From a virus (lineage: Duplodnaviria; Heunggongvirae; Uroviricota; Caudoviricetes), in the IMG/VR virus record IMGVR_UViG_3300042901_002340: a stretch of 64,000 bases of DNA; one strand, 5' to 3'. Both the position numbers and the translations under genes were made by a program. The notes below the pieces were generated by a model, which had not been told where the DNA came from, searched no databases, and worked only from the letters and a program-made list of their open reading frames with translations. Of this stretch, positions 9,878 through 64,000 are shown piece by piece (position 1 is the first letter of the stretch; every line of letters starts with the position of its first letter).

Positions 9878-11326
9878 TTATAAACCTATTATAGCGGGAT
9901 CCAATATTCCAAATGGTGTTTGGATAAATGTGGCATCACCTAAAATTGATAGGGAGGATCCTGACGAGTTATACAAAGTATTAGAATTTCCAATTGAGGT
10001 TCCTACAATTTCAAGTATATTATTTCCATTAGAACCATCATCATACCAAATATTTAATGTATCTGTATTATTAGAATAAAATTTGCAATTGCTTAGAGTT
10101 ACATACATGCATGTTTCAGAGAATCCTGCTCTAGAAAGTATATGAGCTTTTTCTGGTGGTGCTTGCTTATTAGAGTAGTTTACGAATCTTACGTTTTCAA
10201 AATTCCAAATTCCATTGTAGTAATCCTCGCTTTCAGTACCAACATTTTCAAGTAAATTTATATTTGCATATTGCTGAGCTTTAGTATCACCAGTTATAAA
10301 AATACTATTTGTTACTGCTACACAGTCCCTTCTGGAGTTCGATAATTTAATATTATTTGTCAAAGAATATAAATAAGTATTCACTATGTGCAATCTTGTG
10401 CCATCTGCATTACTCATAAGAAAGCCATAGGCGCAATCGTTGGCAAGCATGGAAACATTGGAAATTCTACATTTTAAACCGGTACCGCTTAAAAGAAATA
10501 GACATTGAGGTTCAAATAAATCATTTTGACTTAATATAACAGCATTAGGAGATTCTTCTAGATTATTACTACGATCGTCACCAACTATTGAAAAATTCCT
10601 AGTAATATCTATTAAACGGTCGGCAGAATCCAAGAGATTGAAAACTACCTTTACTCCTCCATTTAGCTTGATTGTTAAATTTACCGCGGGAGCCCATGTT
10701 CTAGTTTCCGTGTAATTCCCAGGAAATACCCAAATAGTATGATCGTCTAATTCTAAGGCATTACAATAGACAATTGCACCGCGAATGGTCTGAAAAGGAA
10801 GATCCAGTCTACCCACTACACCAGTAGAATTATTACCATTAGGATCTACAAAAAGGGTTTTAGCATAAGTAAAGGATGATCCGCTACCGGTGGGACCCTG
10901 TGGACCAGTTACCCCTATCCCAGTAGCACCTTGTGGACCTGTTGGTCCAGTAGCACCAGTTCTACCAGTAGCACCAGTTACTCCAAAAATACCAGTAGCA
11001 CCTTGTGGACCTGTTGGTCCAGTAGCACCAGTTCTACCAGTAGCACCAGTTACTCCCACTCCAACAATACCAGTAGCACCCTGTGGACCTGTTGGTCCAG
11101 TAGCACCCTGTGTTCCTTGTGGACCTGTTACTCCCGAAATACCAGTAGCACCTTGGGCTCCTTGAGGACCAGTAGGACCTTGAGGACCAGTTACCCCCTC
11201 GCCTGTCCCGCCTATAGTATAAATATAATTACCCTCACCATCGTAGACATCATTACCTTGTATCTGTAATAATCTACCATAGGTGTCGGCTATAAATTCG
11301 CCGGTAAGATTTAATGGATTTGACAC
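9878..11326 (-). CDS. Collagen-like repeat plus beta-helix domain fibre protein
   Basis: 482 aa. N-terminal GxTGxQGxTG collagen tracts, then a C-terminal beta-helix-like Asn/Ser-rich domain. Confidence 0.65.
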
Positions 11327-11344
11327 TTATTAAATTTTTTTGCG

Positions 11345-12049
11345 TTAAGCAATTCTAACTCTAGTGCCTGATTGTGCCTGGTTATTTTGCTTTTGTGATA
11401 GTATTTCTACCTTTACATTTTTACTGCTTTGTACTTGGAATGTTTCGTACCAAGGGTAGAAAATCTCACCATCCACGACAACCTCAAGTTTAATTACTCC
11501 CTTGAGTCCAGGTGATAGGATTGATATTTTTTTGAGTGGTATTCTACAAACACCGCCATTTATGGAACCTTTAAAGAATATGTTCCATTCATCAGATTCC
11601 AATATGAGTCTAACTGCGGTGTTCTTAACATCGCTTCCCTCTATCATAACTTTACATTCAAATGACTCCGCTTTATCTCTGAATATCTTGTAAGCAAGCG
11701 GATCCATTGGAATTTGTGGTTCCTCTTCTATGGGTTCTTCCATTATCCCCTCAGGTTCTGGTATGAATGAAGATTTTGCTGATTTTATATAAGCAGGATC
11801 AATAAAATCCGTTATCGTCTTCTCTTTAGGTACCTCGCAATAATCTTCGATCTCGTCATCCTCTCCGTAATTTCTTCTGATGTCAACAGGAATAGGTAGT
11901 TCCATGGTTGATGAAGCTATATCGTCAAGCAGACTTTCCTTTAGAGGTTTCTCCTCTTTCCTGTGTTCTCTTCTCTCTAAAACCGGTTTAGTTTGAGCTT
12001 GTACTCCCTTCTTTGGGTCGAAAACGAAATCTGAATATTTTGTTATCAT
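11345..12049 (-). CDS. Hypothetical acidic protein
   Basis: 234-aa ORF in the same transcriptional direction as the fibre genes. Confidence 0.5.
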   Translation of the reverse strand: MITKYSDFVFDPKKGVQAQTKPVLERREHRKEEKPLKESLLDDIASSTMELPIPVDIRRNYGEDDEIEDYCEVPKEKTITDFIDPAYIKSAKSSFIPEPEGIMEEPIEEEPQIPMDPLAYKIFRDKAESFECKVMIEGSDVKNTAVRLILESDEWNIFFKGSINGGVCRIPLKKISILSPGLKGVIKLEVVVDGEIFYPWYETFQVQSSKNVKVEILSQKQNNQAQSGTRVRIA

Positions 12050-17350: not shown

Positions 17351-17442
17351 TGACCAGTACAGGATTCGAACCTGTCATCCGTTCTATCGCCATTTCTTGT
17401 GGGATTCGAACCCCGATAGATAGGACTGCCAACATCCGGTCA
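17351..17442 (-). tRNA. tRNA-like element T1 (92 nt): canonical T-arm plus 7-bp acceptor stem, non-canonical interior
   Basis: Minus-sense 3' end is ACAGG-TTCGAAT-CCTGT-ACTGGTC-A. The 5' end TGACCGG pairs fully with it. The interior holds a second T-loop-like GGG-TTCGAAT-CCC inside a 7-bp hairpin TCTATCG/CGATAGA. Confidence 0.4.
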
Positions 17443-17587
17443 TAAAAATCATCCATATAAACACCCTTGAGGTTGGATCGTTCTGAAATACGTTCAGAAA
17501 CCTTAGTTGATTACCCCGGTTTAGTTTACATCGTCCAATTGACCACACCCTCTGACCCTTAGCGAGGTATGATGAATGAATGATTAG

Positions 17588-17697
17588 TGGTCGGTATAGG
17601 ATTCGAACCCATTTATATCGTGTGCATAGCCTTACACATAAAGTTCGTTTGACTATCCCTTCAATTTACGATTGCCTAGCCAATCAGCCACCTGACC
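17588..17697 (-). tRNA. tRNA-like element T2 (110 nt)
   Basis: 3' end ATGGG-TTCGAAT-CCTAT-ACCGACC-A. 5' end GGTCAGGTGGCTGATTGG... pairs with the 3' strand at 5 of 7 positions. Too long for a standard tRNA. Confidence 0.35.
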
Positions 17698-17943
17698 AAA
17701 AATGATGAATCAAAAAATTTCCGCCTTGGCTAAAAAATATCATCATCTGCTAAGACTTCTTTGAATGGTTCAGGTACCTAAATAGTTCAAGCTATTCTGA
17801 ATCTACATGTCATTAAAGCATTAGCTTTTTTAAGGTTCAAATCCGAACTGTAACTCATTTAATCCTTAACTTGTCGAAGCAAGTTTCTAGGTTTACCCCT
17901 AGCACTCCGTAGATACCACAGAGTAGTTAACATCGCTGATTTG

Positions 17944-18047
17944 TGGTCTGGACAGGATTTGAACCTGTATGAAGTTTACACCATTAAGGGACTTACACCC
18001 ACCTATTAAGGCTTTCTTTAAGCGTCTACCAATTCCGCCACCTGACC
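17944..18047 (-). tRNA. tRNA-like element T3 (104 nt) with a type-II (Leu/Ser/Tyr-like) D-arm
   Basis: 5' end GGTCAGG-TG-GCGGAATTGGTAGACGC is essentially the E. coli tRNA-Leu D-arm. 3' end ACAGG-TTCAAAT-CCTGT-CCAGACC-A. About 53 nt lie between the D-arm and T-arm, too many for a canonical anticodon arm plus variable arm. Confidence 0.45.
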
Positions 18048-18052
18048 AATTA

Positions 18053-18559
18053 TTATTCGCAATTAATTTTTCGAATGTTATAATTTGTAAATAAATTTAC
18101 ATAGTAATTTATTTCGTCTGGTCCCATTTTATATTGAAAAGAGACGTTATCAATCCCGTTAATGTATCTAACATAATTAATTTTTTTACTTTTCAAAATT
18201 ATGAATTCCAATTCTGATAATTTAAAATAAAAAATATTTCCACTTTTTGATTCATCCGTGGATTTTATTTTTAATCTACCCCCATCCTTAAATGAAAAGA
18301 GCAATTGACATTTTTTACTTGGACCACCAATGTTTGATTTAATTACTATAAGGCCATGGCAAGACAATCTATTGCCATCTATTTGGTAATTTGGTTTTAA
18401 TGTAAACCACTTTGTTCTATCAATATTTGAACAAACCACACCACTTGGTCCATAAATTTCGGTCTTATTGGTGCAGTCATCAATGGTAACTCGATCGTTT
18501 TGTGAATATATTGAATTTATCGCTAATATTAAAGCTAATGCAATCAATGTTTTTTTCAT
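18053..18559 (-). CDS. Secreted or lipoprotein-like hypothetical protein (start moved to the internal Met MKKTLIALALILAINS)
   Basis: The ORF-track N-terminal extension (18560..18676) overlaps tRNA-like element T4. The internal Met is followed by a signal-peptide-like segment. Confidence 0.5.
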   Translation of the reverse strand: MKKTLIALALILAINSIYSQNDRVTIDDCTNKTEIYGPSGVVCSNIDRTKWFTLKPNYQIDGNRLSCHGLIVIKSNIGGPSKKCQLLFSFKDGGRLKIKSTDESKSGNIFYFKLSELEFIILKSKKINYVRYINGIDNVSFQYKMGPDEINYYVNLFTNYNIRKINCE

Positions 18560-18578
18560 TATTTTTATATTCTTATTA

Positions 18579-18736
18579 GTAGTCAGAGTGGGATTCGAAC
18601 CCACGATGGTAATTGGAGCGTTGATTCTTCCACTGTCGCTAACAGGGGTTCCAAATCCTGTGCGTCCTTTCTCCAATTTAGCGTCTGCCTCGTTATAACA
18701 GGATTTCTCGCATTATAAGCCTTCCGCCACCTGACT
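18579..18736 (-). tRNA. tRNA-like element T4 (158 nt) with a ~32-nt insertion in the D-loop region
   Basis: 5' end AGTCAGG-TG-GCGGAA[GGCTTATAATGCGAGAAATCCTGTTATAACGAG]GCAGACGC. 3' end GTGGG-TTCGAAT-CCCAC-TCTGACT-A. The acceptor stem is 7 of 7 with one G-U pair. Confidence 0.35.
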
Positions 18737-29007: not shown

Positions 29008-29461
29008 TGGGTTTCAATTGGCAATCCTCAACAGCTACAGCTTTCTTGTTTTTATAGTAAACTCTATGAACATCTGCAAGAAAAGAAACCTCATCCGGAC
29101 CTAGAAATTCCATCATGAGTCTTAGAACTGATGGGAGAACTTCCGATTCATGGAAGATCATTCGGATCTCCTTATAACCATTTCTCTTTCCCTCCTCCCA
29201 ATCCTCCGGATCCTTGATGTTGCTTTCATTGGTGTGTGTCTTGTGTTCATAGATCTGTCCATCGTAGTAACTGAACTCGCTAGTTTCCCCAACTATGCCG
29301 TCCAATTCCTTGACGTCATTAAAGAATTGATCGGTTCCCTTTTCCTCTATATACTTTTTGAATTCTGCAAATATCTCCGGAAATTCTTTCTCGTGTATTT
29401 TGAATTCTTTGTGATCGTGACCCATCTTATCCCAAAGGATCGAAGAATATAAACTCACCAT
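28997..29461 (-). CDS. Hypothetical protein
   Basis: 154-aa ORF. Confidence 0.45.
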   Translation of the reverse strand: MVSLYSSILWDKMGHDHKEFKIHEKEFPEIFAEFKKYIEEKGTDQFFNDVKELDGIVGETSEFSYYDGQIYEHKTHTNESNIKDPEDWEEGKRNGYKEIRMIFHESEVLPSVLRLMMEFLGPDEVSFLADVHRVYYKNKKAVAVEDCQLKPNDE

Positions 29462-30366
29462 TATTTTTTCTTTTTAAAGTACTTATCCATAATATGTGTG
29501 ATGATATTATGTTTTTTATCGGTACAAGTTATTGTTATATAATTTTTTGATGCGTTTTGTGTGTGAACTAGACCATATCTTTTCATCAATGTAATATCAA
29601 CCTCAGGTGTAAGAGAAGCTGAGTTTACTCTCTCACTTTTATTGAAAACCTCACCCTCTGAATGCTCAACCAGAAATATTCCTTCGTTCATCGGTCCGTT
29701 ATTTCTGCCTATAACCACTCTTTTATCCTTCCAGCTAAGATTTGGATTTACTAGGATTTCAATTTTTCCCCTGTATACCCCACATTTATAGATTAATCCT
29801 GATAGTCCTCTCTGTCCCATTGATGAATCATGTTCAATTGGACTGAATCCTTCGCTGTCGGAAAAATGTGGTAATAATCCGGGCCCTATTATAACAAAGT
29901 TTGCTGGTCCGATTCTTGAAGCAGCCGCTATTCGGTTGGATAAAAGTAGTACCTTTCTTGGCAATTCCCCATCCTTTGATAGGTCAAGCATTGGAATATA
30001 TCCCGTCCATTTATTGGCAAGGTTCTGGATTTTTGTCCATAGCTTTCTGTTTGATTCGTAACCAAGCAATTTCATTTTTTTATAAATCTGCTTTTCCTGA
30101 CCTGTACTGGATTCTCCTATAAGAGTGGATTCAATCATTGTCATAGCATCAATACCATAAGCATCAAGATCTTTTATCTGTTCGCCGTTGATTGTCGATT
30201 TAACCCGGTATGTCTCTAGTTCAACAAGTTTTGTTTTTGTTGTTACCCCGATTTCTGGAAATCCGTCTTCGCTAGGTGTATCTTTTAATTCTGTGGTCAG
30301 GTAAGTTAATATCCCATGTCCACTGTCTACCTGTGATACAGATATATGTTTTTTAATCTCACTCAT
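29461..30366 (-). CDS. Hypothetical protein
   Basis: 301-aa ORF with no recognised motif. Confidence 0.5.
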   Translation of the reverse strand: MSEIKKHISVSQVDSGHGILTYLTTELKDTPSEDGFPEIGVTTKTKLVELETYRVKSTINGEQIKDLDAYGIDAMTMIESTLIGESSTGQEKQIYKKMKLLGYESNRKLWTKIQNLANKWTGYIPMLDLSKDGELPRKVLLLSNRIAAASRIGPANFVIIGPGLLPHFSDSEGFSPIEHDSSMGQRGLSGLIYKCGVYRGKIEILVNPNLSWKDKRVVIGRNNGPMNEGIFLVEHSEGEVFNKSERVNSASLTPEVDITLMKRYGLVHTQNASKNYITITCTDKKHNIITHIMDKYFKKKK

Positions 30367-31033: not shown

Positions 31034-32947
31034 TTATTTGTTACCTCTTTTAGGTCCTTCCTGACTAATTGGACTTGATGGAGTTACCTCTGGAGTTTCC
31101 TTAACCTCAGCAGCAGCTTTTCTAGCGTTAACCTGGTTTAGTAATTCCATCCCAAGCAATCCTGAGATTGGTCCATTAGAACCATCTCCTCCGCTGATAA
31201 GGATTTCAGGAATGATCTTGATGTTATTAACCCCGATTGACTCTACAACTTTTAATTGTCCGAAGTTATCAGCACCCATCGCTTGAACTTGTTTCTCGTA
31301 AGCTTCTGCTGTCGCTCTACCGATAGCTTCAATCTTAGAAGCCTCAGCCTTACCTGTTACTTCGATTTGAGTAGCATCTGCTTTTGCCATCAGTTCTTTT
31401 GCTTTTGCCTCCGCTCCAGCTTTGATTTCAATAGCTTTTGCTTCCCCTTCAGATCTCTTAACTTCAGCTTCAGCTTTTCTTTGCGAGATCTCAACTGATT
31501 GCTGTGCACTTACCATTTCTCCTTGCATGTTAGCCAAGGCTTTTGCTGATTCAAGGGTTTTACGTTGATCTTGTGCTTTTTTCTGAGTCTCGAATGTTAC
31601 CTCCTCTTCCTGTGCGATCTTACGATCTGTTAATGTTTTCATTAACGATTCAGGTGGGACGATGTCTCCGATTAATGTATCTACTGCATGTACATTGTAC
31701 TCATCCAGAACTTTTGATATATTCGCCTTTGCAGCATCTTGTCTTTGCTGACGTGTTGATAGGAACGCAATAACATCTGAATCCTGTGCAGAGTTACGGA
31801 AGTAGTTACCAATTGTTGGCTCTAGTACTTGTGATACAAGATTTGACATAGAACCGAATCTAGCAATAACCTTTGGTGCCTCTGTGGAGGGAATGTGAAT
31901 AATTTGAGATACGTCCAGATTGAATGGGAATCCATCCTTAGATCTAACCGTGATGGTGCTTAGATTTTTATCCAAATTGTGGGATTCTGATCTGGCATTT
32001 GCCCAGTTGAGTACCAGATTTGTTGTTGGAACAACTTCAATTTTCTGTGTGTATGGATTGATTGCATATTTACCTGGATCCAATGGCGTAATGCAAACAC
32101 CTTTTTGTCCCTTCTGAACAATATTTCCATGTTTGAATGTATCCCCTGTGGTATCAACACCCTCGTCACCAACATAAGATATAACAACACCAACGTGACC
32201 AATTGGTATCTGTGTCATCTCCTTCTTCTCTATTTCTATTGCCCAAGGATTAATCGAATATGAACCTGCTTGAATAACCTGAACTTGAAGTCCTCTTTGG
32301 CCTCCATTTTCTAAGAATTTATCAAAATCCTGGAAGTTATTATGCCCATCCACCGTTGATCCTGCGATCGATCCGGTTTTAAGAGGTATACCATCCAATG
32401 CAGTTATTACCCCAACCATTCCGTCTTCAATGTAAGTGATATCTGCTTCGTATATCTCGAATATATGTTTGTTGATACGATATACCCCGTTATTAAGATA
32501 TCCGACCTGCTTACCACGTTGACCTCCATTAGTTAAGAATTCTCTAGCTGACTGGTAGTTATCGCAATCAACGTGTCTGGCTAAAATGGACCCTGTTGGG
32601 AGTTGGGCACCGTCCTTAGATGTAATTATTCCAATTTTTCCTTTCTGGATAACCGTTAATGGTGATTGGTCAATTGTGAATTGCCAAGGCCAATAGAACC
32701 AATATAATCCTGGTGCTAATGTATCAGCCTGAAATCCAGGTTCTCCATTAAGAGCAATAATCTTACCATCAGGTAATGTTTTGTTTGCTCCGAAAAGTAC
32801 GAATTTTTTGGTAACTAGACCAATTTTATCCTCTGGGATAATTACCATACCGAAGAATACTCGGAGCGTGAATTTGTAAAATAGTACAGCTAGAATTGGA
32901 ATAATCCACCAAGCATACCCTAATAAATTTGAAATTTGTTCGTGCAT
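31034..32947 (-). CDS. SPFH / band-7 / flotillin-like protein
   Basis: 637 aa. N-terminal TM segment, SPFH-like beta-rich region, and a C-terminal flotillin-like EA-repeat coiled coil (QRKAEAEVKRSEGEAKAIEIKAGAEAKAKELMAKADATQIEVTGKAEASKIEAIGRATAEAYEKQ). Confidence 0.65.
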   Translation of the reverse strand: MHEQISNLLGYAWWIIPILAVLFYKFTLRVFFGMVIIPEDKIGLVTKKFVLFGANKTLPDGKIIALNGEPGFQADTLAPGLYWFYWPWQFTIDQSPLTVIQKGKIGIITSKDGAQLPTGSILARHVDCDNYQSAREFLTNGGQRGKQVGYLNNGVYRINKHIFEIYEADITYIEDGMVGVITALDGIPLKTGSIAGSTVDGHNNFQDFDKFLENGGQRGLQVQVIQAGSYSINPWAIEIEKKEMTQIPIGHVGVVISYVGDEGVDTTGDTFKHGNIVQKGQKGVCITPLDPGKYAINPYTQKIEVVPTTNLVLNWANARSESHNLDKNLSTITVRSKDGFPFNLDVSQIIHIPSTEAPKVIARFGSMSNLVSQVLEPTIGNYFRNSAQDSDVIAFLSTRQQRQDAAKANISKVLDEYNVHAVDTLIGDIVPPESLMKTLTDRKIAQEEEVTFETQKKAQDQRKTLESAKALANMQGEMVSAQQSVEISQRKAEAEVKRSEGEAKAIEIKAGAEAKAKELMAKADATQIEVTGKAEASKIEAIGRATAEAYEKQVQAMGADNFGQLKVVESIGVNNIKIIPEILISGGDGSNGPISGLLGMELLNQVNARKAAAEVKETPEVTPSSPISQEGPKRGNK

Positions 32948-32980: not shown

Positions 32981-33014
32981 GCAAATATATGACAAAATTT
33001 CGAATTAAAAAAAT
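32981..33014 (-). promoter_or_regulatory. Conserved promoter element (gcaaatatatg ... ttcgaattaaaaaaat)
   Basis: Lies upstream of 31034..32947. The terminator hairpin aaaaaatccgaaatttatttcggatttttt follows it. Confidence 0.5.
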
Positions 33015-33196: not shown

Positions 33197-33943
33197 TTAA
33201 GTGATTATTTTTGCGGCTATATTCTCAACGAATGCCTTCATATCTGCAGGTGATATCTTATCTACAGAGTCTTCCATGCTATGACATAGAAATAGAACTT
33301 CAAAATCTAAGCATCTCCCATCGGAACAAACAACTGGTGTTTTCTTATCTGTTGGAGGCAATGGATTGATAACAACAGAATCTATACCATTCCTTCTGAA
33401 AATAACAGAATCGTTGAAAGGTGTTCTAACTATTGGACAATCAAAGATGGATTGGATGTGATCTGTTAGTGGCCCTGGGTAGTCTCCAATAAAGAAATCT
33501 TCACCCCCTCTGCCGGTTAACTCGAAATTAAGTACCCATTTGATATCACCAAAATCTCCAGCATTAATTCTTTCGCTCAGATGTTTGGATCCAAATCCTC
33601 CATACTCTTCACCGTCCAATATCGATACGTTTATTGAAGGTACCAATTTCTTAAGTGCAATCGCATTAATAACTGAACAGCTATTATCATTTGCATTGTC
33701 TGATTTTGGATTAACTATATCGTGATGAGCAACAACAAACTGGTTTGAATTACCTAACAGATTGATATTGAACCCGTCAGTTTTCTCATCGACAGGGAAA
33801 CGATCAATCTCGTATTCTATCCCCTCTTTTTTAAGAAGAGACACTATAAACTCCAGCCTGGGGGTAAGTTCCTTCCCATTGGTGAAGATAGGACCTACAT
33901 TTTTTGCGGCACAGAGCCCATAAATTTCATTGTATATACTCAT
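33197..33943 (-). CDS. Zn-dependent peptidase-like protein (M28/M20-like motifs)
   Basis: VVAHHDIV (H.D), ANDNSCSV (GA.DD.SG-like) and ...NDSVIFRRNGIDSV (SDH..F...GIP-like). Confidence 0.4.
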   Translation of the reverse strand: MSIYNEIYGLCAAKNVGPIFTNGKELTPRLEFIVSLLKKEGIEYEIDRFPVDEKTDGFNINLLGNSNQFVVAHHDIVNPKSDNANDNSCSVINAIALKKLVPSINVSILDGEEYGGFGSKHLSERINAGDFGDIKWVLNFELTGRGGEDFFIGDYPGPLTDHIQSIFDCPIVRTPFNDSVIFRRNGIDSVVINPLPPTDKKTPVVCSDGRCLDFEVLFLCHSMEDSVDKISPADMKAFVENIAAKIIT

Positions 33944-34972: not shown

Positions 34973-35355
34973 TATTTTTTTAGATTAATTGCTTTTTTTA
35001 GACCCTCCTCCAGGGCATCTTCATAGATAGTGAATGCTTCGTCACATTCAAAAGTTGTTTCATTATCGTCCATTATTAGCCATTCGTAATGACCTTCTTT
35101 TAGTGCGGGAACAATGAAAACATTTATTCCTAATTCTTCCCTCAGCCATTTCTGAAGAAGTGATTGTGTTGGCGCCGATATTGATTCTTCAGTATTATTA
35201 CATTTTCCAATACCTTGTTTTGAGAGTAGTACCTTCAAATACTCAGGATCCCAATAGTATCTTCCATCAACTGGAATATTGAATCCCTTTGACTTAGCTA
35301 ATTCTGCGGTCTCTATGGTTATTAATTTTTCTTCCATTCCTTTATTATTCCTCAA
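34972..35355 (-). CDS. Hypothetical protein, family B paralog (see 54794..55939)
   Basis: Shares LAKSKGFNIP...YYWDP and PTQSLLQKWLREELGINVFI with three tandem ORFs at 54.8-55.9 kb. Confidence 0.5.
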   Translation of the reverse strand: MRNNKGMEEKLITIETAELAKSKGFNIPVDGRYYWDPEYLKVLLSKQGIGKCNNTEESISAPTQSLLQKWLREELGINVFIVPALKEGHYEWLIMDDNETTFECDEAFTIYEDALEEGLKKAINLKK

Positions 35356-35385
35356 ATATATGAAATCCTTTCGAATAAAAAAAAT
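35351..35385 (-). promoter_or_regulatory. Conserved promoter element (ctcaaatatatg ... ttcgaataaaaaaaat)
   Basis: Lies upstream of 34972..35355. Confidence 0.45.
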
Positions 35386-35421: not shown

Positions 35422-37083
35422 TTATTTTAATCTCTCTCTAATTTCTGTTAGCGTGACCTGATTGTGGAATTTACCATCCTCATAGATGGTAAATAATAAA
35501 CCACTGTCTTCCTGCTCCTTAGTGCATTCGGTATTTACCTCCAACTGATCCTTACCATCGTACTTGATCTCGTAAGGTAAGGCATCTGGCCTGTTATTGA
35601 ATACCTGACAGAAACCCTTTAATGATTTTTTAGTACCATTATCTGTTATTGGGTCTTTGTAGATATTATATTCGGTCGTGATGTAATCAGTTTGACCGTC
35701 AGGATCAACACCATTAAATTCCTTAGTAGAGAACCAAGCTCCTTTAGCTGCATATCCAGCAGAGTCTCTTGTTAGCATGACATATGTGTAAGAACCAACC
35801 CCTACAACGACGTTAGTAGATGCAAATCCTTTGGCTTCTGACCTTGTGTAGATAGCAATTTGTCTTTCCAAGTTGATTGAATCACCGTAGATGGCTCCAA
35901 TGTGTGGGTCCAATCTTTTATATCCTTGTTCATTGATAGTTCCACCAAAGATATCCCAAAGTAATTCAATAACACCTTTACCTTCTGGAGTTCCAGTGTG
36001 TAATGTTGATTCGCTACCGCAAATAATATCGACTGGGTCTCCAGAATCAGGACGAATTACAAGTTTACCATCTCTTGCAAGGATTTCCTTTTTAAGTCTT
36101 GGTAGAATGTGCGTAATAACTTTCCATAAATCCATTGTATCAGAAACTGCAGAAAGAATGCCTTTAGGGAATTTTTTCAACCAATCTCGAAGATTAAGGT
36201 ATTCTGCAATTGCTAGGTAGTCCGGAGCATCAACCGATCCCTCGCAAGGGGAATCGAAAGAATAGTAGTTTAGAATCTCATGGTTTAATTTTCCAGATTT
36301 TAATTTTTTCTCGTAGAAGAAAATACCTGTACAAGTCACGCTGTGCTCTGAAGCATTAACGCTATAAACAGGAACCTCATTCTCATCAAAATCGTAGTAG
36401 TATCTTGATGCCGGGATAACATTTAATGTGTCGCTACCAGAATTACTCATGGCGTGTCCTAAACCGATTGCGATTGAGGTGAAAGGATTACCACCTCTAC
36501 TATGAAAATCGTGACACATGAAATCAGCTAACCAAAGATTCTCCGGATCTGTTTTGGTAACCCATTCCACAGCATTCTTTTTGAATCTGTGTGCAATGGT
36601 AGCAGCAGTAGGTAATTGCCAAGCCAATTTAGAAACCAATGTCTCTAAGTAAAGTCCAAGCCATGCATAACCATCAACAGTATTAATACCCGTCATGTGA
36701 GGGATATTTGGTTTGGTGAAGGTTCCTTCTGGGATAGCTTTGATTTTAACTGGAAGGTATCCAAGTTTATGAAGCTCTGTGAAATGCCCAGCATCATAGT
36801 CCATCATAAGATACTTAGCCATATCTCTTCCAAATTTCTCTGCCACCTCCACATGTTTATTGAAGAAAAGCTCCTGAAAGTTACTATGAATGTATCTCCA
36901 AACTAATTGTTGACCTGCTGACATGATGCCGTCTATCGATGGATGCATGTACTTGATGCTTCTTGGAATCCATGTCCAATATTCGGTTGCTGTGTTTTCA
37001 GCTAACATTGCCTTGTGCCCAACTTTATACCCGTCGGATTCGTAAAGGGGGTTGATTTTAAACGTTTCGTTTAGTTTTTCCAT
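35422..37083 (-). CDS. nadV: Nicotinamide phosphoribosyltransferase (NAMPT / NadV-like; could be a Namat-type enzyme)
   Basis: Recalled NAMPT blocks aligned by eye: DGYKVGHKAM (cf. DSYKVTHYKQ), KIKAIPEGT, CHDFHSRGG (cf. LHDFGYRG), LVIRPDSGDPVDII (cf. LIIRPDSGNPLDTV), GAIYGDSIN. Confidence 0.8.
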   Translation of the reverse strand: MEKLNETFKINPLYESDGYKVGHKAMLAENTATEYWTWIPRSIKYMHPSIDGIMSAGQQLVWRYIHSNFQELFFNKHVEVAEKFGRDMAKYLMMDYDAGHFTELHKLGYLPVKIKAIPEGTFTKPNIPHMTGINTVDGYAWLGLYLETLVSKLAWQLPTAATIAHRFKKNAVEWVTKTDPENLWLADFMCHDFHSRGGNPFTSIAIGLGHAMSNSGSDTLNVIPASRYYYDFDENEVPVYSVNASEHSVTCTGIFFYEKKLKSGKLNHEILNYYSFDSPCEGSVDAPDYLAIAEYLNLRDWLKKFPKGILSAVSDTMDLWKVITHILPRLKKEILARDGKLVIRPDSGDPVDIICGSESTLHTGTPEGKGVIELLWDIFGGTINEQGYKRLDPHIGAIYGDSINLERQIAIYTRSEAKGFASTNVVVGVGSYTYVMLTRDSAGYAAKGAWFSTKEFNGVDPDGQTDYITTEYNIYKDPITDNGTKKSLKGFCQVFNNRPDALPYEIKYDGKDQLEVNTECTKEQEDSGLLFTIYEDGKFHNQVTLTEIRERLK

Positions 37084-44042: not shown

Positions 44043-45116
44043 TTATACGTATTTATGTGTTTGGTCGTTAATCATAGCAATTGTGCCGGTGGTCAATTGC
44101 TTCAACGTCTCTTTAAAAACTTGTATTGCAGCCGCTACGTCATCTTTATGCACCATCTCTACTGTAGTATGCATATACTTCAACGGACTAGCTACGATCA
44201 CTGTAGGGACGTTTTCAAGGAAGAATGAAACTGTGTCATTTCCATAAGATCCAACAGATAGTTGCAACGGAATTTCTTTTTTCTTAGCAACATCTCTAAC
44301 GATATTGATTAGATCCTTGTGGTTTTGAGACGAGTACTCGATAACCGGACCTGCACCTCCTTTAACATCACCAGATTTGGCTTTGTTCATCTTAGGAGAG
44401 TTTGTGTTATGGGTAACGTCGTGAACCAATGCGATGTCTGGTTTAATTGTTTGAGCAATCAATCTTGCTCCAAATAACCCAACTTCCTCCTGGACAGCAT
44501 TAACTATGTAAAGATCGAATGGTAACACTGTTCCTTCCTCTTTAAGTTCTCTTGCAACTTCAGCAATGATGTAACCACCGATCTTATTGTCTAGTGATCT
44601 ACCCACGTAATATTTGCCCATCTCGAAGAATGGCTGGTCAAACGTGATACAATTTCCAACCTCGACCCCAAGTTTTGCAACCTTCTTTGCTGTGTCAACT
44701 CCAAGATCAACCCAAAGTTCATGAACTTCCGGTCCCATCTCAACTCTTTTTTCTCTAACGTGAATAGCAGGCCATCCAAAAACTCCAGGTACTTTTTTAC
44801 CGTCATGTGTGTGAACAAAAACAGTCATTGATGGAGCAATCATATTGTCTGATCCACCGTTTGTTTTCACTCTAATCATTCCGTTTTCCTCTATCTGCGA
44901 AATTACAAATGCTATCTCGTCGCAGTGGGCTTCCAAAATTACTTTCTTGGTTCCTGTCCCTTTGATTAAACCATATGCTGTTCCGTATGCATCAACTTTC
45001 ATTTCACTAACGAATGGTTTAACATAATCGATCCATATTTTCTGTCCTTCAAATTCTCTTCCAACCGGTGAGAAAGCGTCTAAATACCCTTTTAAAAACT
45101 TTTTATTATCGCTCAT
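44043..45116 (-). CDS. M42 family metallo-aminopeptidase (FrvX / glutamyl aminopeptidase-like)
   Basis: ILEAHCDEIAFVIS matches the M42 AHmDEiG motif. Overall length and layout fit the M42/M20 clan. Confidence 0.65.
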   Translation of the reverse strand: MSDNKKFLKGYLDAFSPVGREFEGQKIWIDYVKPFVSEMKVDAYGTAYGLIKGTGTKKVILEAHCDEIAFVISQIEENGMIRVKTNGGSDNMIAPSMTVFVHTHDGKKVPGVFGWPAIHVREKRVEMGPEVHELWVDLGVDTAKKVAKLGVEVGNCITFDQPFFEMGKYYVGRSLDNKIGGYIIAEVARELKEEGTVLPFDLYIVNAVQEEVGLFGARLIAQTIKPDIALVHDVTHNTNSPKMNKAKSGDVKGGAGPVIEYSSQNHKDLINIVRDVAKKKEIPLQLSVGSYGNDTVSFFLENVPTVIVASPLKYMHTTVEMVHKDDVAAAIQVFKETLKQLTTGTIAMINDQTHKYV

Positions 45117-47197: not shown

Positions 47198-48103
47198 TTA
47201 GATAACTTTTAATTGTTTAAGTTTGTGCATCTCATTATCGTTTCTTAATGAGAATTCAGGATCGGACATATCAACATAACTGTTGGTTGTGTAGATACCA
47301 TCGAAGTGTTCATTTAGTGGCTTTAAACCAGCTGAAAAGATTCCATGGGTTACAACAAGGAAAATCTTACCTGTTGCATTTTTTTCTCTGAGTGCTTTAG
47401 CAATCTCGATAAATGTGCGTCCTCCGTCGCAAATATCATCTAAGATAAAGAAGTCTTTATCTAGATCCTCAGGTTTTAAAGGAACATCAGTGTGTGTAAT
47501 CTTGCCAGTCCCAATGTCTCTGTGTTTTGAAGCTATAACTATGTCCTGCTTATATCCAATGGACTCGGCAACATCGTAAACTTTCTTAAGAGCTCCAGCA
47601 TCCGGAGATATTAATCTCATTTTGGAATAATCAGTGCTTCCAGAATTGAAATAGTCACGCAATACAAATGTTAGTAAACCCTGACCATATTGAGTTACCT
47701 TTTTGAATTTTTTGATACATGCCTCAGTCACATCCGAATGCGGGTCAAGTATTGTTACTCTTTTGAATTTCTGTGCATTGATAATAGGAGCAAGAACCTC
47801 TTTGATGTAATTAACACTTCCTTCCTCGAATTTTCTGTCCGATCTCGCACCTAATAGGTATGATATCTCAAGTGAAGTTGCTTTAACTCCAAGCTCTTTA
47901 AGAGCTTTATTTGCACAAATAACCAATTCAAGATCCAAGAATGAAGTTATTCTGGATTTTATTAAAACTGGTTCCATTTTCTCAAACATATCATGTTTGA
48001 GAACTTCACCCTCCAATATGGTGATGGCTTGCTGGCCATCCGGAAATTTGGAGACCTTGAATTTGATACCGTAGCTTAACGGTTCGGAAAGATTTATTAC
48101 CAT
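47198..48103 (-). CDS. Ribose-phosphate pyrophosphokinase (PRPP synthetase)-like protein; could be an ADPR-pyrophosphate synthetase (Adps) type
   Basis: RVTILDPHSDVTEAC matches the PRPP-synthetase DLHA..IQGFF region. FFILDDICDGGRTF matches the PRPP-binding loop VDDMIDTGGT. 301 aa. Confidence 0.65.
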   Translation of the reverse strand: MVINLSEPLSYGIKFKVSKFPDGQQAITILEGEVLKHDMFEKMEPVLIKSRITSFLDLELVICANKALKELGVKATSLEISYLLGARSDRKFEEGSVNYIKEVLAPIINAQKFKRVTILDPHSDVTEACIKKFKKVTQYGQGLLTFVLRDYFNSGSTDYSKMRLISPDAGALKKVYDVAESIGYKQDIVIASKHRDIGTGKITHTDVPLKPEDLDKDFFILDDICDGGRTFIEIAKALREKNATGKIFLVVTHGIFSAGLKPLNEHFDGIYTTNSYVDMSDPEFSLRNDNEMHKLKQLKVI

Positions 48104-50209: not shown

Positions 50210-50471
50210 CTTTTTGGTATTTATCTAAAAATTTTTGTATTATCGAAGATCCGCTCGATGACTTTCCAACAATCATGTTTAGCTCACCATCCTGTGGGCC
50301 AACCATATTATTCAAAGCCTCTGCCATTCTTTCCTTGAGTGACATGTTAGCTAATCTCTCCTCAGCTGCTTTATTTTCAAGATCAATGAACTCCTTCCAC
50401 TCCGGAGAGGACACGATTTCATTTATGCTATTGTACTTCAACTTCTTCAGATTTAGGTGATTTAATTTCAA
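50202..50471 (-). CDS. Hypothetical small protein
   Basis: 89-aa ORF. Confidence 0.4.
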   Translation of the reverse strand: MKLNHLNLKKLKYNSINEIVSSPEWKEFIDLENKAAEERLANMSLKERMAEALNNMVGPQDGELNMIVGKSSSGSSIIQKFLDKYQKDV

Positions 50472-51282
50472 ACTCCGGAATCATGACATCCATAAATTCT
50501 CTCTCCTGTGTGAATATAGGTGTCGGAATCATTTGCCATTTCAGTCTTTCAACCTGGCCATCTCTACCTTCAATCATTGTTGGTACCTTAGCAATAATGC
50601 CACCTCTTTTTTCTCTGAAGTGATAGTCATTCCAGTTGATTCCTTTCTGAAAAATCATCTCTTGCATGTCCTTCTCCTTCTTGCCATTTAATTCACTTTG
50701 TGAATATAGGCTTTGCGCAACGGATTGGATTGAGTTTCTAGTTCCATCTTGCTGTCTGAAGATGAAATAGTTCTCAACCTCACTTTTTTGTGGAATCTGA
50801 AACACCCTAGCATCGAACTCTGCTAGTTTAAATTTTTCGATCTCTGCTTGACTCATTGTTTGATCCAATATCGAAGATGCTAAACTTGCCATTGGATCAA
50901 CATTGTTCTTAGCATATCTGATCATTCTCAGCTGGTTGAACTTTGCAGTTGCCATAGAAGCTGCAACCGATGCCATTTTTTGTAGATTCCCATCGAACCA
51001 CATTTGAGTGTCTCTCTCTTCGAAATCAGTAATAAGTATACTGATCTCATCTGATTGAACATAGCCAAATTTTGCTCCCTGTATATTCTTACAAAGGTAG
51101 GCGGTGGTCTCGTTCATGTCTGCAATTAAACCTGCATCAAATGGAGATACCAAACCTTTTGTGTAGGTGTGGAAAGCTTTCCCGTCGATTCTGATTATTG
51201 TGTACGTTCTCCGTGGAACATAGTATCTAAAACGGTCTTCGTAGAATTCTTTCATACGATCGCCAAGGCTAAAGATTTTCAT
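50428..51282 (-). CDS. Thg1-like protein (tRNA-His guanylyltransferase family 3'-5' nucleotidyltransferase)
   Basis: TIIRIDGKAFHTYTKG...FGYVQSDEISILI and ..KMASVAASMATAKF match the Thg1/TLP catalytic core (cf. VVVRLDGRNFHRF...AYGQSDEYSFVF, ..KFMTHVASQFASSY, as recalled). Confidence 0.75.
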   Translation of the reverse strand: MKIFSLGDRMKEFYEDRFRYYVPRRTYTIIRIDGKAFHTYTKGLVSPFDAGLIADMNETTAYLCKNIQGAKFGYVQSDEISILITDFEERDTQMWFDGNLQKMASVAASMATAKFNQLRMIRYAKNNVDPMASLASSILDQTMSQAEIEKFKLAEFDARVFQIPQKSEVENYFIFRQQDGTRNSIQSVAQSLYSQSELNGKKEKDMQEMIFQKGINWNDYHFREKRGGIIAKVPTMIEGRDGQVERLKWQMIPTPIFTQEREFMDVMIPEFEIKSPKSEEVEVQ

Positions 51283-51284
51283 AG

Positions 51285-52169
51285 TTAATTTTTTAATTCG
51301 TATAATCCCTCCCTAACTAGAACGCTGTGCAGATCTCTAATTCTAAAGTAGTAACATGCATTTTTTGTTGATCCTCCATAGTAATCATGATCGTAAGATT
51401 CATCAACATCAACACACTCAGCCCATATTTTTTTGTATAGCATGAATGATATATGTGGACAAACCTCGTTGATTATATCGTCGAAGGCACTAAAGTTGGA
51501 TACTGGTGCTTCCCCAGAAACCGTTCCTCCGCCTCCCCAGCAATCTTTCCAATCTCCACCTAGACACCAGGATTGTGAGGTAACTTTTCCATCCCGATCT
51601 GGGCAAGAATGCTTGGATGCAATCTCATCCCTAAAAACCTCCCATGCTAATTTCATTACAGTTTTATGTGTTTGTATCGAAACTTTGACATCCTTCATTT
51701 CTGATAGACTTTCTGATATTTTAGCAAGATCTGGTGTTTCTATTGTTGAATTTGCGATTGATATCGATGAGTTCTTATCCCTTCTTCCTCTATCGTTGTG
51801 CATGCACGCATCAATATCGGGTGTCCAGTAATTGATTACAACCTCAGTATTCTTTCTGATTTGTAACTTATTCAAAAGATCTATAATACCGCCATTCGTT
51901 GAAACGAAAAGATCCAATATAACCTCATCATAATGCGTGGAGCTATTTTGATATTCTCTGATCATCTCAACATCAGGTTTGGTCAGTGAAGCGGATGGAT
52001 ACCTTCTTCTGATCTCGTATCTCTCCCTCAACTTATCAAATTCTATATGAAGAACCCCACCTTTGCTCCTCATGCTTCCTGCTGGCCCCTGTTTATCTTT
52101 AGCCCATGTGGTCTTTCCTGATCCCGGTAAACCAACTGTTATATGTAATTTTTGATTATTCATTCTCAC
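51285..52169 (-). CDS. P-loop kinase (polynucleotide-kinase-like) next to the Thg1-like gene
   Basis: Walker A ITVGLPGSGKTTWAKD at the N-terminus. The downstream region has no clear HAD phosphatase motif. Confidence 0.45.
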   Translation of the reverse strand: MRMNNQKLHITVGLPGSGKTTWAKDKQGPAGSMRSKGGVLHIEFDKLRERYEIRRRYPSASLTKPDVEMIREYQNSSTHYDEVILDLFVSTNGGIIDLLNKLQIRKNTEVVINYWTPDIDACMHNDRGRRDKNSSISIANSTIETPDLAKISESLSEMKDVKVSIQTHKTVMKLAWEVFRDEIASKHSCPDRDGKVTSQSWCLGGDWKDCWGGGGTVSGEAPVSNFSAFDDIINEVCPHISFMLYKKIWAECVDVDESYDHDYYGGSTKNACYYFRIRDLHSVLVREGLYELKN

Positions 52170-58034: not shown

Positions 58035-58069
58035 CACAAATATATGATAATAATTCGGATTAAAAAAAT
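58035..58069 (-). promoter_or_regulatory. Conserved promoter element (cacaaatatatg ... ttcggattaaaaaaat)
   Basis: Lies upstream of 57779..58000. Confidence 0.5.
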
Positions 58070-59172: not shown

Positions 59173-59206
59173 GCAAATATATGAAATTCTTTCGGAATAA
59201 AAAAAT
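59173..59206 (-). promoter_or_regulatory. Conserved promoter element placed to drive the minus-strand tRNA-like cluster 58272..58933
   Basis: gcaaatatatg ... ttcggaataaaaaaat. No protein gene lies between it and element T8, about 240 nt downstream on the minus strand. Confidence 0.45.
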
Positions 59207-59221
59207 AAATAATGAAAAAAA

Positions 59222-60124
59222 TTACATATTTAATCCTTCCTTCATTGATTCCTCCGAAAGCTTTCTAGCTTCCTCCATCTCTAAAGTGGATAAGAATTTA
59301 TCCAGTGTCAGATCACAATATTCATCTATCCAGTCGCCTATAAAGTACAATTTTCTAGTACCTTTAAGCACACCAAATAGAATTGGATCCTTGGCCTTTT
59401 CAACCTCGGCTTTTGTCATCTTTGTGGAATTGTCATACTTATCAAAATGCATAACCGCATAATTATCAAATAGCTCCGAAACGTCATATTTTTTCTTTTC
59501 CTCTATAACATCTTCCGGAATCATTCTGGCGTAGTTTTTTATCCACGTCAGTTTCAGCATTTTATCTTTTAGGTTTGCTTTTTTATAGAACTTAACTACA
59601 TCCTCCTCGGTAACGTATTTCATCTCACCAACCTCCAATAGTTTAGCTTCCGCAAGAACCCCATCCTTCTTATCTCTAAGTATTTCCAAGAAAGCTATCT
59701 GTCCATTATTCTTTGCAGTTTCTATTGCATTTGTATAGAATTCGACCGAGCCTGGATTTACCTCCAGAGTTTTTATTGAATCCTTAACATCATTAAAGAA
59801 TTCATCCACTGATTGATATCGGATTTTTGTTATCTTCTTGTTTGGAAATAGCATCTCCGCAGCTTTCAATTTAATCCAACTTTTAAACGTGTGCTCATGC
59901 ATGTGCCTATAGTGAAAATAATCAACCGCACGTACTTCTATTGAATCGGTGAGTGAATTTGCAGAATTTGAATCCCTTGTCATGGCATCCGAGAATGAAC
60001 TCATTCCACCAACCACGAAAGATCCGTTTGCTACTGATATGCTATTATTTTCCACCTTCTTGATGGCCTTGGGCATAGAGATGAAATTTTCAAATATCTC
60101 TAACTTGTTGGAATTTGTTATCAT
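59222..60124 (-). CDS. Hypothetical protein
   Basis: 300-aa ORF. Confidence 0.5.
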   Translation of the reverse strand: MITNSNKLEIFENFISMPKAIKKVENNSISVANGSFVVGGMSSFSDAMTRDSNSANSLTDSIEVRAVDYFHYRHMHEHTFKSWIKLKAAEMLFPNKKITKIRYQSVDEFFNDVKDSIKTLEVNPGSVEFYTNAIETAKNNGQIAFLEILRDKKDGVLAEAKLLEVGEMKYVTEEDVVKFYKKANLKDKMLKLTWIKNYARMIPEDVIEEKKKYDVSELFDNYAVMHFDKYDNSTKMTKAEVEKAKDPILFGVLKGTRKLYFIGDWIDEYCDLTLDKFLSTLEMEEARKLSEESMKEGLNM

Positions 60125-60811: not shown

Positions 60812-61384
60812 TTAGAAATACCTTTCCTCAAATACGAGGAGATCTAATTTGTTATTTACGTTGATTAATTGAAGTGCATTCAGAAGATCTGAGTATTCAC
60901 CAACAGAATCATTTTGTATATCAACATACTTCTGGATGAAATTAAATGTTGGTGGATGTGCATCGCAAAGTGCATGCTGCATTGATGAGTAATTCATCAA
61001 TAGCTTATATTCTATGTCGTATCCCTCGTCGATAATACTAACTAATGAATCAAACTCATTTGGTACATTTACTGCAGGTATCTGTGGAAGTATATTCCAC
61101 TGGATTAAATAATCCTGTAAGCCTTTTGCGTGATCGAGTTCGGATGCTGCCTCAGCTTCAAAGAAAGCTGTTGCTTTTTTATAGTTTGCGTTTTTGCACC
61201 AATTGGCTGCATTTCTATATGTATAGTGTGCAGTGTATTCATCAGCTATTCTTTTCTCGAATGCAGCAACTATATCAGCTGATAAAACTTTTGGATTTGT
61301 AATTCCGTTTGATACTCCAATCTCTATGGCTTCAATCTCCACATTCTCGTTGGTTTTATCTTTGAAGTGTTTAAATGTTCTCAT
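60812..61384 (-). CDS. Ferritin-like protein
   Basis: AHYTYRNAANW...ATAFFEAEAASELDHAKGLQDYL matches the ferritin helix A/B pattern (Y.Y......F..FF...S.EE..HA.KL..Y). Confidence 0.6.
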   Translation of the reverse strand: MRTFKHFKDKTNENVEIEAIEIGVSNGITNPKVLSADIVAAFEKRIADEYTAHYTYRNAANWCKNANYKKATAFFEAEAASELDHAKGLQDYLIQWNILPQIPAVNVPNEFDSLVSIIDEGYDIEYKLLMNYSSMQHALCDAHPPTFNFIQKYVDIQNDSVGEYSDLLNALQLINVNNKLDLLVFEERYF

Positions 61385-63051: not shown

Positions 63052-63345
63052 TTATTGCGGATTTGTTGTTGCTATGTCTCCTATTAGATCGCCACCTGTC
63101 CAAACTGTAATTACCTGCCCCTTAGTGAATCTTTCGAACCTTCGAGGTTTAACCTCAATGATGGTGTCTTGTCCCCTTTTATTCTTTGTTTTTAAGCTCG
63201 CTGCTCCATCCCAGGAGCTTACCTTCATTACAGTACCCACATATCTATTTGGTTCAGTATGCATCACTATAATAAGTACTAGAACCAATATTGGGATTCC
63301 GACAAAGATTAATGGCAACGAAAGGTCTTTTAATGATTCTTTCAT
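63052..63345 (-). CDS. Small membrane protein
   Basis: 97 aa with an N-terminal TM helix. Confidence 0.4.
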   Translation of the reverse strand: MKESLKDLSLPLIFVGIPILVLVLIIVMHTEPNRYVGTVMKVSSWDGAASLKTKNKRGQDTIIEVKPRRFERFTKGQVITVWTGGDLIGDIATTNPQ

Positions 63346-63602
63346 TAGAAAAGATCATTAAATGGTGGATCCCAATTTTTCCTCTTTCTAGCAGTTTTTC
63401 CAATCTTTACGGAACCTGATGATAGATTTACCTGCCAACTTACCCCAACAGGTCCAGGGTTACCTGTAGGTCCAGCAGAGCCAAGTGATCCCATTTCCTT
63501 GTTGGATGGTAGATGCTTATGAGATTTTTTACCTGGATTTGTTGGCGCCTCACTTTGTGGGTTTGCTCTATTCGTCTTATCCCTCATTTCAACTCTTTCC
63601 AT
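63345..63602 (-). CDS. Hypothetical small basic protein
   Basis: 85-aa ORF. Confidence 0.4.
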   Translation of the reverse strand: MERVEMRDKTNRANPQSEAPTNPGKKSHKHLPSNKEMGSLGSAGPTGNPGPVGVSWQVNLSSGSVKIGKTARKRKNWDPPFNDLF

Positions 63603-64000
63603 TATATACTTCTTTTAGTGTCTCTGTCAATATCCTTCTCTTTGATAGCTGCTCTTTTATCATAGGTCTTCTTTCCCTTTGCAAGTGCTATATCCAACTT
63701 GATTAATCCTTTCTCGTTGGTAAAAATTCTAAATGGAACTATAGTCATTCCTCTGTCCATATCATTCTGTAGCTTTTTAAGCTCACTTCTATTAAGAAGT
63801 AATTTTCTTTCCCTATTAGGTTCATGAGAATATGTCGAAGATATTGGAGTTATGTTTAGATTCTTTAGAAAAAGTTCCTTTCCATTGAAATAACAGTAGG
63901 AATCCACAAAAGAAACCCTACCGTCCCTAATAGCCTTTACTTCAGATCCCATTAGTTGCATTCCAGCAGTTAGAGTCCTAATAAACTCATAATCGAACCT
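63602..64000 (-). CDS. smpB: SmpB (SsrA/tmRNA-binding protein); the N-terminus runs past the window end
   Basis: SEVKAIRDGRVSFVDSYCYF..ELFLKNLNI.P.......HEPNRERKLLLNRSELKKL.......GMTIVPFRIF.NEKGLIKLDIALAKGKKTYDKRAAIKEKDIDRD aligns block by block with recalled bacterial SmpB (..TEVKSLRAG..SDSYA...LHISPY......HEPRRTRKLLLHRREL.KL...GLTLVPLKLY...G..K.ELALAKGKK.HDKR..IK.RD). Confidence 0.75.
   Translation of the reverse strand, partial: RFDYEFIRTLTAGMQLMGSEVKAIRDGRVSFVDSYCYFNGKELFLKNLNITPISSTYSHEPNRERKLLLNRSELKKLQNDMDRGMTIVPFRIFTNEKGLIKLDIALAKGKKTYDKRAAIKEKDIDRDTKRSI

Follow-up and report, generated by a model that had tools for sequence, protein, structure and literature searches.

The last 399 bases of a 64,000-nucleotide stretch of viral DNA (IMG/VR record IMGVR_UViG_3300042901_002340; the whole stretch is called the window here) contain, on the minus strand, a gene for SmpB, the protein partner of transfer-messenger RNA (tmRNA). 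The reading frame at 63602-64000 comprises 132 codons and a stop codon (63604-63602), has no internal stop and is still open at the window edge, and the gene is therefore cut at its N terminus. Since full-length orthologues have 144 to 150 amino acids and start with M..NKV.INNRKAKFDYEF, 12 to 18 N-terminal residues must lie beyond position 64000, and the fragment covers approximately codons 13 to 144 of a 144- to 150-codon gene whose 5' end is past the window edge. The truncation is thus a product of the window edge and not of biology. An open reading frame (ORF) of 119 amino acids that starts at an internal ATG (63602-63961) does not have the real start of smpB, in view of the length of the orthologues. 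The fragment matched the Pfam family PF01668 (SmpB) with an E value of 2.6e-45 and 154.3 bits (cut-off, 27) over profile positions 8 to 140 of 143, and despite the truncated N terminus it scored above the cut-offs of two NCBIfam equivalog models (NF003843, 155 bits versus 130; TIGR00086, 152.8 bits versus 119.1). It also matched solved SmpB structures, down to E = 5e-37 (best, 7ljp), and the PHROG family phrog_6791 (E = 3.9e-37). By these matches, which are far past chance, the ORF is unambiguously predicted to encode SmpB; an earlier note on this DNA had recognized it as such but gave no strand, which is the minus strand.

The window protein belongs to the same family, at the equivalog level, as the SmpBs of Escherichia coli, T. 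thermophilus and Bacteroidota, with which it shares the signatures G.EVK..R, RKLLL and GKK..DKR, the equivalent of K124 and, as seen in its relatives, NRKA.FDY. Of the 47 columns with a conservation of at least 85% in a reference set of 75 Bacteroidota-type SmpBs, 41 have the consensus residue in the window protein, and the other six show the replacements T>S, I>V, S>A, K>R, Y>I and A>I. In E. coli numbering, the equivalents of L91, K124, G132-K133-K134 and D137-K138-R139 are all present, and from the mutagenesis literature we take those of L91 and K124 to be tmRNA-binding residues. The C-terminal tail, ...ALAKGKKTYDKRAAIKEKDIDRDTKRSI, is basic, contains GKK and DKR and has a normal length, with 24 residues counted from the GKK motif compared to 21 to 29 in Bacteroidota SmpBs and 23 in T. 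thermophilus. Judged from its residues, the phage protein appears to keep every element needed for tmRNA-based rescue. Unlike its bacterial counterparts, the gene is phage encoded and has no ssrA gene detected nearby, and the viral clade to which it belongs shares a deletion of two amino acids and a deletion of one amino acid relative to the SmpBs of Bacteroidota.

Pairwise ratios of nonsynonymous to synonymous substitution rates (dN/dS) between this smpB and seven orthologues were 0.03 to 0.15, with dS near or past saturation, and the ORF is intact in all relatives. The gene is under strong purifying selection. Its G+C content (34.1%) and its G+C content at third codon positions (GC3, 30.1%) were compared to those of 22 other ORFs of the window (38.6 ± 2.3% and 33.0 ± 5.7%, respectively) and to the GC3 of the nearest bacterial smpB genes (39 to 58%). 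The values fit the phage and not the nearest bacterial genes, and the impression in the earlier note that the composition of smpB is like that of the rest of the window was confirmed. Very probably, then, the gene product would be a functional, phage-borne SmpB.

The genes of the window are almost all on the minus strand and densely packed, and most are without a Pfam family, being mostly ORFans with PHROG matches. A Gp23-type major capsid domain was found at 29461-30366 (Pfam-type domain match), collagen-repeat (collagen-like) proteins match tail-fibre PHROGs, GIY-YIG homing endonucleases and matches to homing endonuclease and nuclease PHROGs are present, and NAD-salvage enzymes and a Thg1-like enzyme are encoded. 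A search of 5.8 billion proteins returned a set of SmpB orthologues with 70 to 94% protein identity, all of them metagenomic and several on very long contigs; the labels starting with L and P used below denote the related contigs or loci and the SmpB proteins that were compared. The gene order 3' of smpB is common to the window and its relatives, and there is synteny on both sides of smpB at 72 to 90% nucleotide identity. In eight syntenic relatives, smpB lies far inside viral contigs of 80 to 434 kb, with tens to hundreds of kilobases between the gene and the contig ends. The smpB locus spans 81.7 to 102.1 kb of the 386,471-bp contig Ga0502763_0000020 and 39 to 59 kb of a contig of 110,875 bp, and the gene is also internal in IMG/VR relatives of 434,509 bp (IMGVR_UViG_3300032236_001850), 118,848 bp and 79,910 bp. 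The 10 kb past smpB in the relatives encode a small, putative relative of peptidyl-tRNA hydrolase 2 (mini-Pth2; see below), nucleotidyltransferases, a CCA-adding enzyme, RNA ligases, homing endonucleases and many ORFans, and in L001 only, a polynucleotide kinase-phosphatase (PNKP) is encoded upstream of smpB; neither ssrA nor bacterial housekeeping or core genes were found in these 10 kb. The smpB gene is a phage gene deep in a very large phage genome and not a host gene at the end of a prophage. Indeed, the suggestion of the earlier note that the phage encodes its own rescue factor is borne out by both the phage gene content and the internal position of smpB in the eight syntenic relatives.

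The presence of smpB in huge phages has been known since 2020, when huge phage genomes were described to include tmRNAs and SmpB (Al-Shayeb et al. 2020, Nature 578:425; PMC7162821), and the window adds one more orthologue. The genome of ALT_PHAGE_35_11 (scaffold ALT_09252017_20_scaffold_111; 238,333 bp; from mine tailings, with a predicted Bacteroidetes host; supplementary GenBank file) has a coding sequence at 203,968-204,420 that is annotated as "SsrA-binding protein" and is identical to the window SmpB in 126 of 132 residues. Its G+C content, about 35%, is similar to that of the window, mini-Pth2 precedes smpB, and the genes follow in the same order as in the window, i.e., smpB, the MERVEMRDK ORF, the MKEA..VGTVMKVSSWDG ORF, the MTVKDLIKILEK ORF, ferritin and HD hydrolase. 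The two are separate isolates or species. They differ in six SmpB residues, in the ORF after smpB, which is longer in ALT_PHAGE_35_11 and much shorter in the window, and in an HNH endonuclease insert a few genes past smpB, which is found in ALT_PHAGE_35_11 only. Among the 50,697 phage records of INPHARED, 68 had an smpB match, and the last 12 kb of the window had no Megablast match in these records, among which ALT_PHAGE_35_11 is not included. The earlier note was roughly right that smpB is rare in phages, but the gene is documented for huge phages and its novelty was overrated. Full-length SmpBs with 50 to 54% identity to that of the window are encoded by the likewise huge Lak megaphages (Prevotella phages of about 540 to 550 kb, which infect a Bacteroidota host) and by the 735-kb phage LR756501; these are distant in sequence and belong to other phage clades. 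Parts of the trans-translation system are also carried by phages with tmRNA genes or genes for the tRNA-like domain (TLD) only, such as the mycobacteriophages Bxz1-like and DS6A, Bacillus phage G and marine myophages with a two-piece tmRNA (PMC4131195; PMC9004378), but there it is the RNA partner that is phage borne, whereas here it is the protein partner, and no canonical tmRNA was found. As a feature of huge phages, the window smpB is ordinary and already described. It is quite likely that the window carries the larger part of a functional smpB of a huge phage with a T4-like capsid that is close to ALT_PHAGE_35_11 and has relatives of 80 to 434 kb.

For the origin of the gene, cellular SmpBs were sought in one genome per species (185,579 species). 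Those closest to the window SmpB among the best 80 of about 600 candidates come, with few exceptions, from Bacteroidota and are 45 to 57% identical to it. In a neighbour-joining tree, the window SmpB falls into a tight clade with P0001 to P0023, which is nested in a wider metagenomic clade; two members of the latter were inspected and have phage-like contexts, one of them on a contig of 288 kb whose sample also yielded a close relative. Since Bacteroidota SmpBs are the nearest at this distance, the viral clade is nested and the deletions are shared, smpB would have been captured long ago from a Bacteroidota-like lineage and then inherited vertically in a broad clade of huge phages. The host is probably a member of Bacteroidota. 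A further hint in this direction comes from the motif TCATATATTTG, which occurs (with at most one mismatch) at 11 sites in the window, all of them on the coding strand, a number that none of 100 shuffles reached. Six of the 11 sites are located 24 to 44 nucleotides upstream of ORF starts; examples on the minus strand are 59174-59184, 58037-58047, 35353-35363 and 32982-32992. The motif contains a TAnnTTTG element, which we take to be typical of Bacteroidota promoters, and it is probably the -7 region of phage promoters.

The start codon of an 85-amino-acid ORF on the minus strand (63345-63602) overlaps the stop codon of smpB (TAATG), and the two genes are therefore probably cotranscribed and translationally coupled. 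The ORF has no Pfam match, and its homologue (MERVEMRDK...) also follows smpB in ALT_PHAGE_35_11. On the other side, the relatives have the mini-Pth2 ORF of 82 to 86 amino acids directly upstream of smpB, abutting or overlapping its start (L010, 9749-9997; L004, 9750-10001; L017, 9748-10008; L018, 9748-9999; ALT_PHAGE_35_11, 203735-203986); this arrangement and the overlap at the stop codon place smpB in an operon. By analogy, mini-Pth2 would sit just past position 64000 of the window. The mini-Pth2 proteins are about 30 residues shorter than Pth2. They scored 25.1 to 27.6 bits against PF01981 (cut-off, 23) over the N-terminal motif only, and all seven PDB profile matches were to Pth2/Bit1 (E = 0.002 to 0.3), colinear over the N- and C-terminal motifs. 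We assume that Lys, Asp and Thr are the catalytic residues of Pth2. The pairing of mini-Pth2 with smpB is kept down to 70% SmpB identity and has, to our knowledge, not been described. A Thg1-like 3'-5' nucleotidyltransferase (PF04446, E = 1.4e-25; phrog_4717, E = 1.5e-83) and an adjoining polynucleotide-kinase-like ATPase are encoded at 50428-52169 on the minus strand of the window; together with the CCA-adding enzyme and the RNA ligases encoded upstream in the relatives, they make up a large set of enzymes for the repair of tRNA ends. PTH2, CCA-adding enzyme and Thg1 are known from jumbo phages, where they were read as RNA repair and ribosome rescue (PMC7824862). The smpB neighbourhood points to upkeep of translation while RNAs are cut; a functional tie between mini-Pth2, the tRNA-repair genes, the tRNA-like RNAs described below and SmpB is speculative. 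In L010 and L004, a gene for a 344-amino-acid LAGLIDADG/helix-turn-helix homing-endonuclease-like protein follows directly after smpB (10467-11501 in both), and the window is without it at the corresponding place (approximately 63602-63620). The surroundings of smpB are a hotspot of selfish endonuclease genes.

A noncoding stretch of about 1.1 kb (approximately 59170-58100, minus strand) is located 4.7 kb downstream of smpB on the same strand and is preceded by the TCATATATTTG site at 59174-59184. It contains four tRNA-like units, U1 (58933-58807, 127 nucleotides), U2 (58620-58544, 77 nucleotides), U3 (58459-58353, 107 nucleotides) and U4 (58341-58273, 69 nucleotides), all on the minus strand. 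In each of them, an acceptor stem of its own and a T-arm (GGTTCGAWTCC) are combined with an aberrant or missing anticodon arm. ARAGORN with default settings called none of the four, and intron and relaxed options called U1 to U3, mostly with introns at noncanonical positions; Rfam tRNA scores were only 18 to 31 bits. In U4, which is devoid of an anticodon arm, the acceptor stem has the pairs G1-C72, G2-C71, G3:U70 and G4-C69 and is followed by A73; a D-like hairpin and a T-arm are present. tRNA-Ala and tmRNA have the same acceptor set as that predicted for U4, which resembles a lone tRNA-like domain of tmRNA; a tag ORF, pseudoknots and a match to the tmRNA model were not found in it. When metagenomes were scanned with an 18-mer of U4, 15 of 16 matches were due to chance and lay in coding DNA; the one true match was on contig L010. 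U4 is thus restricted to the lineage of the window and one close relative.

Six relatives have a different tRNA-like RNA of 57 to 59 nucleotides, 1.1 to 5.3 kb downstream of smpB (L010, 15616-15672; L009, 15289-15345; L008, 11507-11563; L004, 15610-15668; L017, 13744-13802; L018, 13736-13794). It has a canonical D-arm and T-arm and an acceptor stem of 6 to 7 bp, and an 8-nucleotide linker replaces the anticodon arm. Its three helices are supported by covariation, with 98% of cells paired, compensatory changes in five pairs (including the acceptor stem) and none of 500 shuffles reaching the score. This unit is absent from the window and is without G3:U70. The noncoding region as a whole is 88 to 96.5% identical to its counterparts (L010, 15671-16815; L004, 15675-16872; L009, 15347-16127), which equals or exceeds the value for the protein genes on its flanks (84 to 90% in L010), and it is modular, with subsets of blocks that differ between relatives. 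The region may give rise to a transcript that is processed into several RNAs, with the tRNA-like units as punctuation. No match to Rfam (GOLLD, ROOL, RNase P, group I/II intron, Y RNA, HEARO) was found for the region at E values of up to 10, and a scan for sigma-70 promoters and terminators in it was not informative. A one-piece or permuted tmRNA was rejected as an explanation of the region, as each unit pairs with its own 5' strand, and short ORFs that were candidates for a tag are not conserved (frame-breaking indels and differing stops between relatives).

The tRNA-like domain of tmRNA has no anticodon arm, and SmpB takes the place of this arm and brings alanyl-tmRNA with EF-Tu to ribosomes with an empty mRNA channel, which is probed by its tail. 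With respect to the partner RNA, the time of action and the advantage for the phage, we infer that during infection the phage SmpB would bind the tRNA-like domain of a tmRNA, either that of the host or a phage copy elsewhere in the genome of about 400 kb, and would deliver alanyl-tmRNA to ribosomes stalled on broken or non-stop mRNAs, with its C-terminal tail probing the empty mRNA channel. Ribosome recycling would be maintained in this way while host nucleases and host shut-off damage RNAs. Huge phages carry translation-rescue parts presumably to keep ribosomes available during infection. On balance, ordinary trans-translation with a host or phage tmRNA is a probable role for the phage SmpB.

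Several points weigh against this view. The search for tmRNA covered the window and over 20 related loci. ARAGORN, whose positive control worked, was used in its default, intron-tolerant and relaxed modes, and Rfam was used in gathering and permissive E-value modes. None was found in the 64-kb window by any of these modes, in agreement with the earlier note, which had seen no canonical tmRNA there, and none was found within ±8 to 10 kb of smpB in at least 15 related or SmpB-bearing loci, so that about 20% of the genomes of about 400 kb was covered. The sole match to the tmRNA model was 17 nucleotides long, scored 10 bits and was located at the 3' end of a tRNA-like unit. When IMG/VR was scanned for the canonical tmRNA 3' end plus CCA, a narrow pattern, none of nine SmpB-bearing contigs was among the 60 matches listed. 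Since no tmRNA was detected, a self-contained phage trans-translation pair is not demonstrated, and the use of a host tmRNA is an assumption about a host that is itself deduced. Moreover, the context past position 64000 was read from relatives with 73 to 85% nucleotide identity in smpB.

The phage SmpB might instead sequester or redirect host tmRNA and thereby block a tmRNA-dependent host response or alter tagging. Trans-translation status affects the development of several phages (Janssen and Hayes, cited in PMC7162821), and the two-residue and one-residue deletions that set the viral clade apart from Bacteroidota SmpBs could be read in this light. Yet, GKK, DKR, the normal-length basic tail and the core positions are intact and under purifying selection, so that a working rescue factor is expected and not a dominant-negative one, and a decoy function is unlikely.

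Another alternative starts from the earlier note, which had proposed a phage RNA with a tRNA-like domain as the partner of SmpB. In this case SmpB would act with phage tRNA-like RNAs that have no anticodon arm, mimics of the tRNA-like domain such as U4; the nascent chain would be transferred to the armless RNA and released by the coencoded mini-Pth2. Ribosomes would then be recycled without host tmRNA and the phage's own proteins would not be marked for degradation; if armless RNAs are SmpB ligands, ribosome rescue would have a new, minimal form. The alanine identity set and T-arm of U4, the covariation-supported armless RNA near smpB in six relatives, the contact of mini-Pth2 with smpB and the nearby gene for a CCA-adding enzyme, in combination with RNA units without an encoded CCA, all agree with such a module. 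A tmRNA-like gene described as "TLD only" is known from mycobacteriophage DS6A and sets a precedent; RNAs of this type have a functional interaction with the SmpB system and interfere with tmRNA, possibly by titrating SmpB (PMC4131195). The published TLD-only molecule, however, inhibited tmRNA function and did not rescue ribosomes (PMC4131195). The DS6A RNA is the nearest described analogue of U4, whose kinship with tmRNA would be hypothetical. Furthermore, U4 is limited to the window and a single close relative, the 57- to 59-nucleotide unit is missing from the window and does not have G3:U70, and distant SmpB-bearing phage contigs have no tRNA-like unit within ±8 to 10 kb. Since both RNAs are limited to certain lineages, their co-occurrence with smpB is explained by shared synteny alone. 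What stands of the proposal in the earlier note is that there are tRNA-like RNAs 4.7 kb downstream of smpB; nothing links them to SmpB, and we consider a tag-free module of this kind quite improbable.

The earlier note had also asked whether the end of a prophage integrated close to ssrA lies within the window, so that smpB would be a host gene and bacterial chromosome with a canonical ssrA would follow past position 64000. Such cases may exist among phage records, as smpB is found at the extreme end of temperate or prophage records such as that of Staphylococcus phage StauST398-5 (bases 58-459 of 43,301; smpB homologue about 40% identical, in a group of records of about 43 kb) and of Acinetobacter and Listeria records, which fits the known integration at ssrA-proximal sites and host DNA at the junction. 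In contrast, the smpB of the window is internal to a huge phage: the eight syntenic relatives have phage genes for at least 10 kb on both sides of it, without ssrA or core genes, which speaks against a junction, and an integrase or att-like feature was not seen. Cellular SmpBs of the 185,579 species do not exceed the 57% identity given above, and the GC3 of smpB is like that of the phage and unlike that of Bacteroidota smpB genes. The prophage-junction reading is effectively refuted. A recent passenger or decaying pseudogene without a role for the phage, for which only the rarity of smpB in phages could be cited, is effectively refuted as well by the selection analysis (intact ORF in all relatives, low dN/dS at nearly saturated synonymous sites), the position of smpB, which is kept among relatives down to 70% protein identity, the ameliorated composition and the wider clade of SmpBs in phage contexts.

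The value of the smpB observation lies mainly in a correct annotation and also in a window that is shown to be phage internal, with the integration-site reading excluded. The locus slightly sharpens the question of which RNA partners phage SmpB when no phage tmRNA is evident, and some interest, although modest, is left in the tRNA-like RNAs, which are unexplained, and in the pairing of the Pth2 and smpB genes.

The window contains further genes that are usual auxiliary genes of large phages, at 35422-37083, 47198-48103, 44043-45116, 33197-33943, 31034-32947 and 60812-61384; their products include an NAPRTase-family enzyme, a PRPP-synthetase-like protein, M42 and M28 peptidases, an SPFH/Band 7 protein and a ferritin-like protein. 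Next to the noncoding RNA region lies an ORF of 300 amino acids (59222-60124, minus strand) that has no Pfam match but matches phrog_10081, "transposase" (E = 2.9e-20), and whose position is conserved in relatives. At the other end of the RNA region (approximately 58215-58100, minus strand), a conserved core, GGTRAKGAGAGAACTGCAGTGGGCTGCTGCACTACAC ... GAGAACTWAGC, recurs in intergenic regions of L021 (approximately 1000-1120), L022 and L023, which are otherwise unrelated viral contigs of 43 to 215 kb; this core looks like an independent small structured RNA motif or a protein-binding site. Four or five more tRNA-like units, of 90 to 160 nucleotides, form a second cluster at 17351-18736 on the minus strand. 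It was called only by intron-tolerant ARAGORN, in some units with an "intron" at position 37; several units start with a class-II-like 5' half, GGTCAGGTGGCGGAATTGGTAGACGC, and the units have odd inserts, among them a T-arm nested in another unit.

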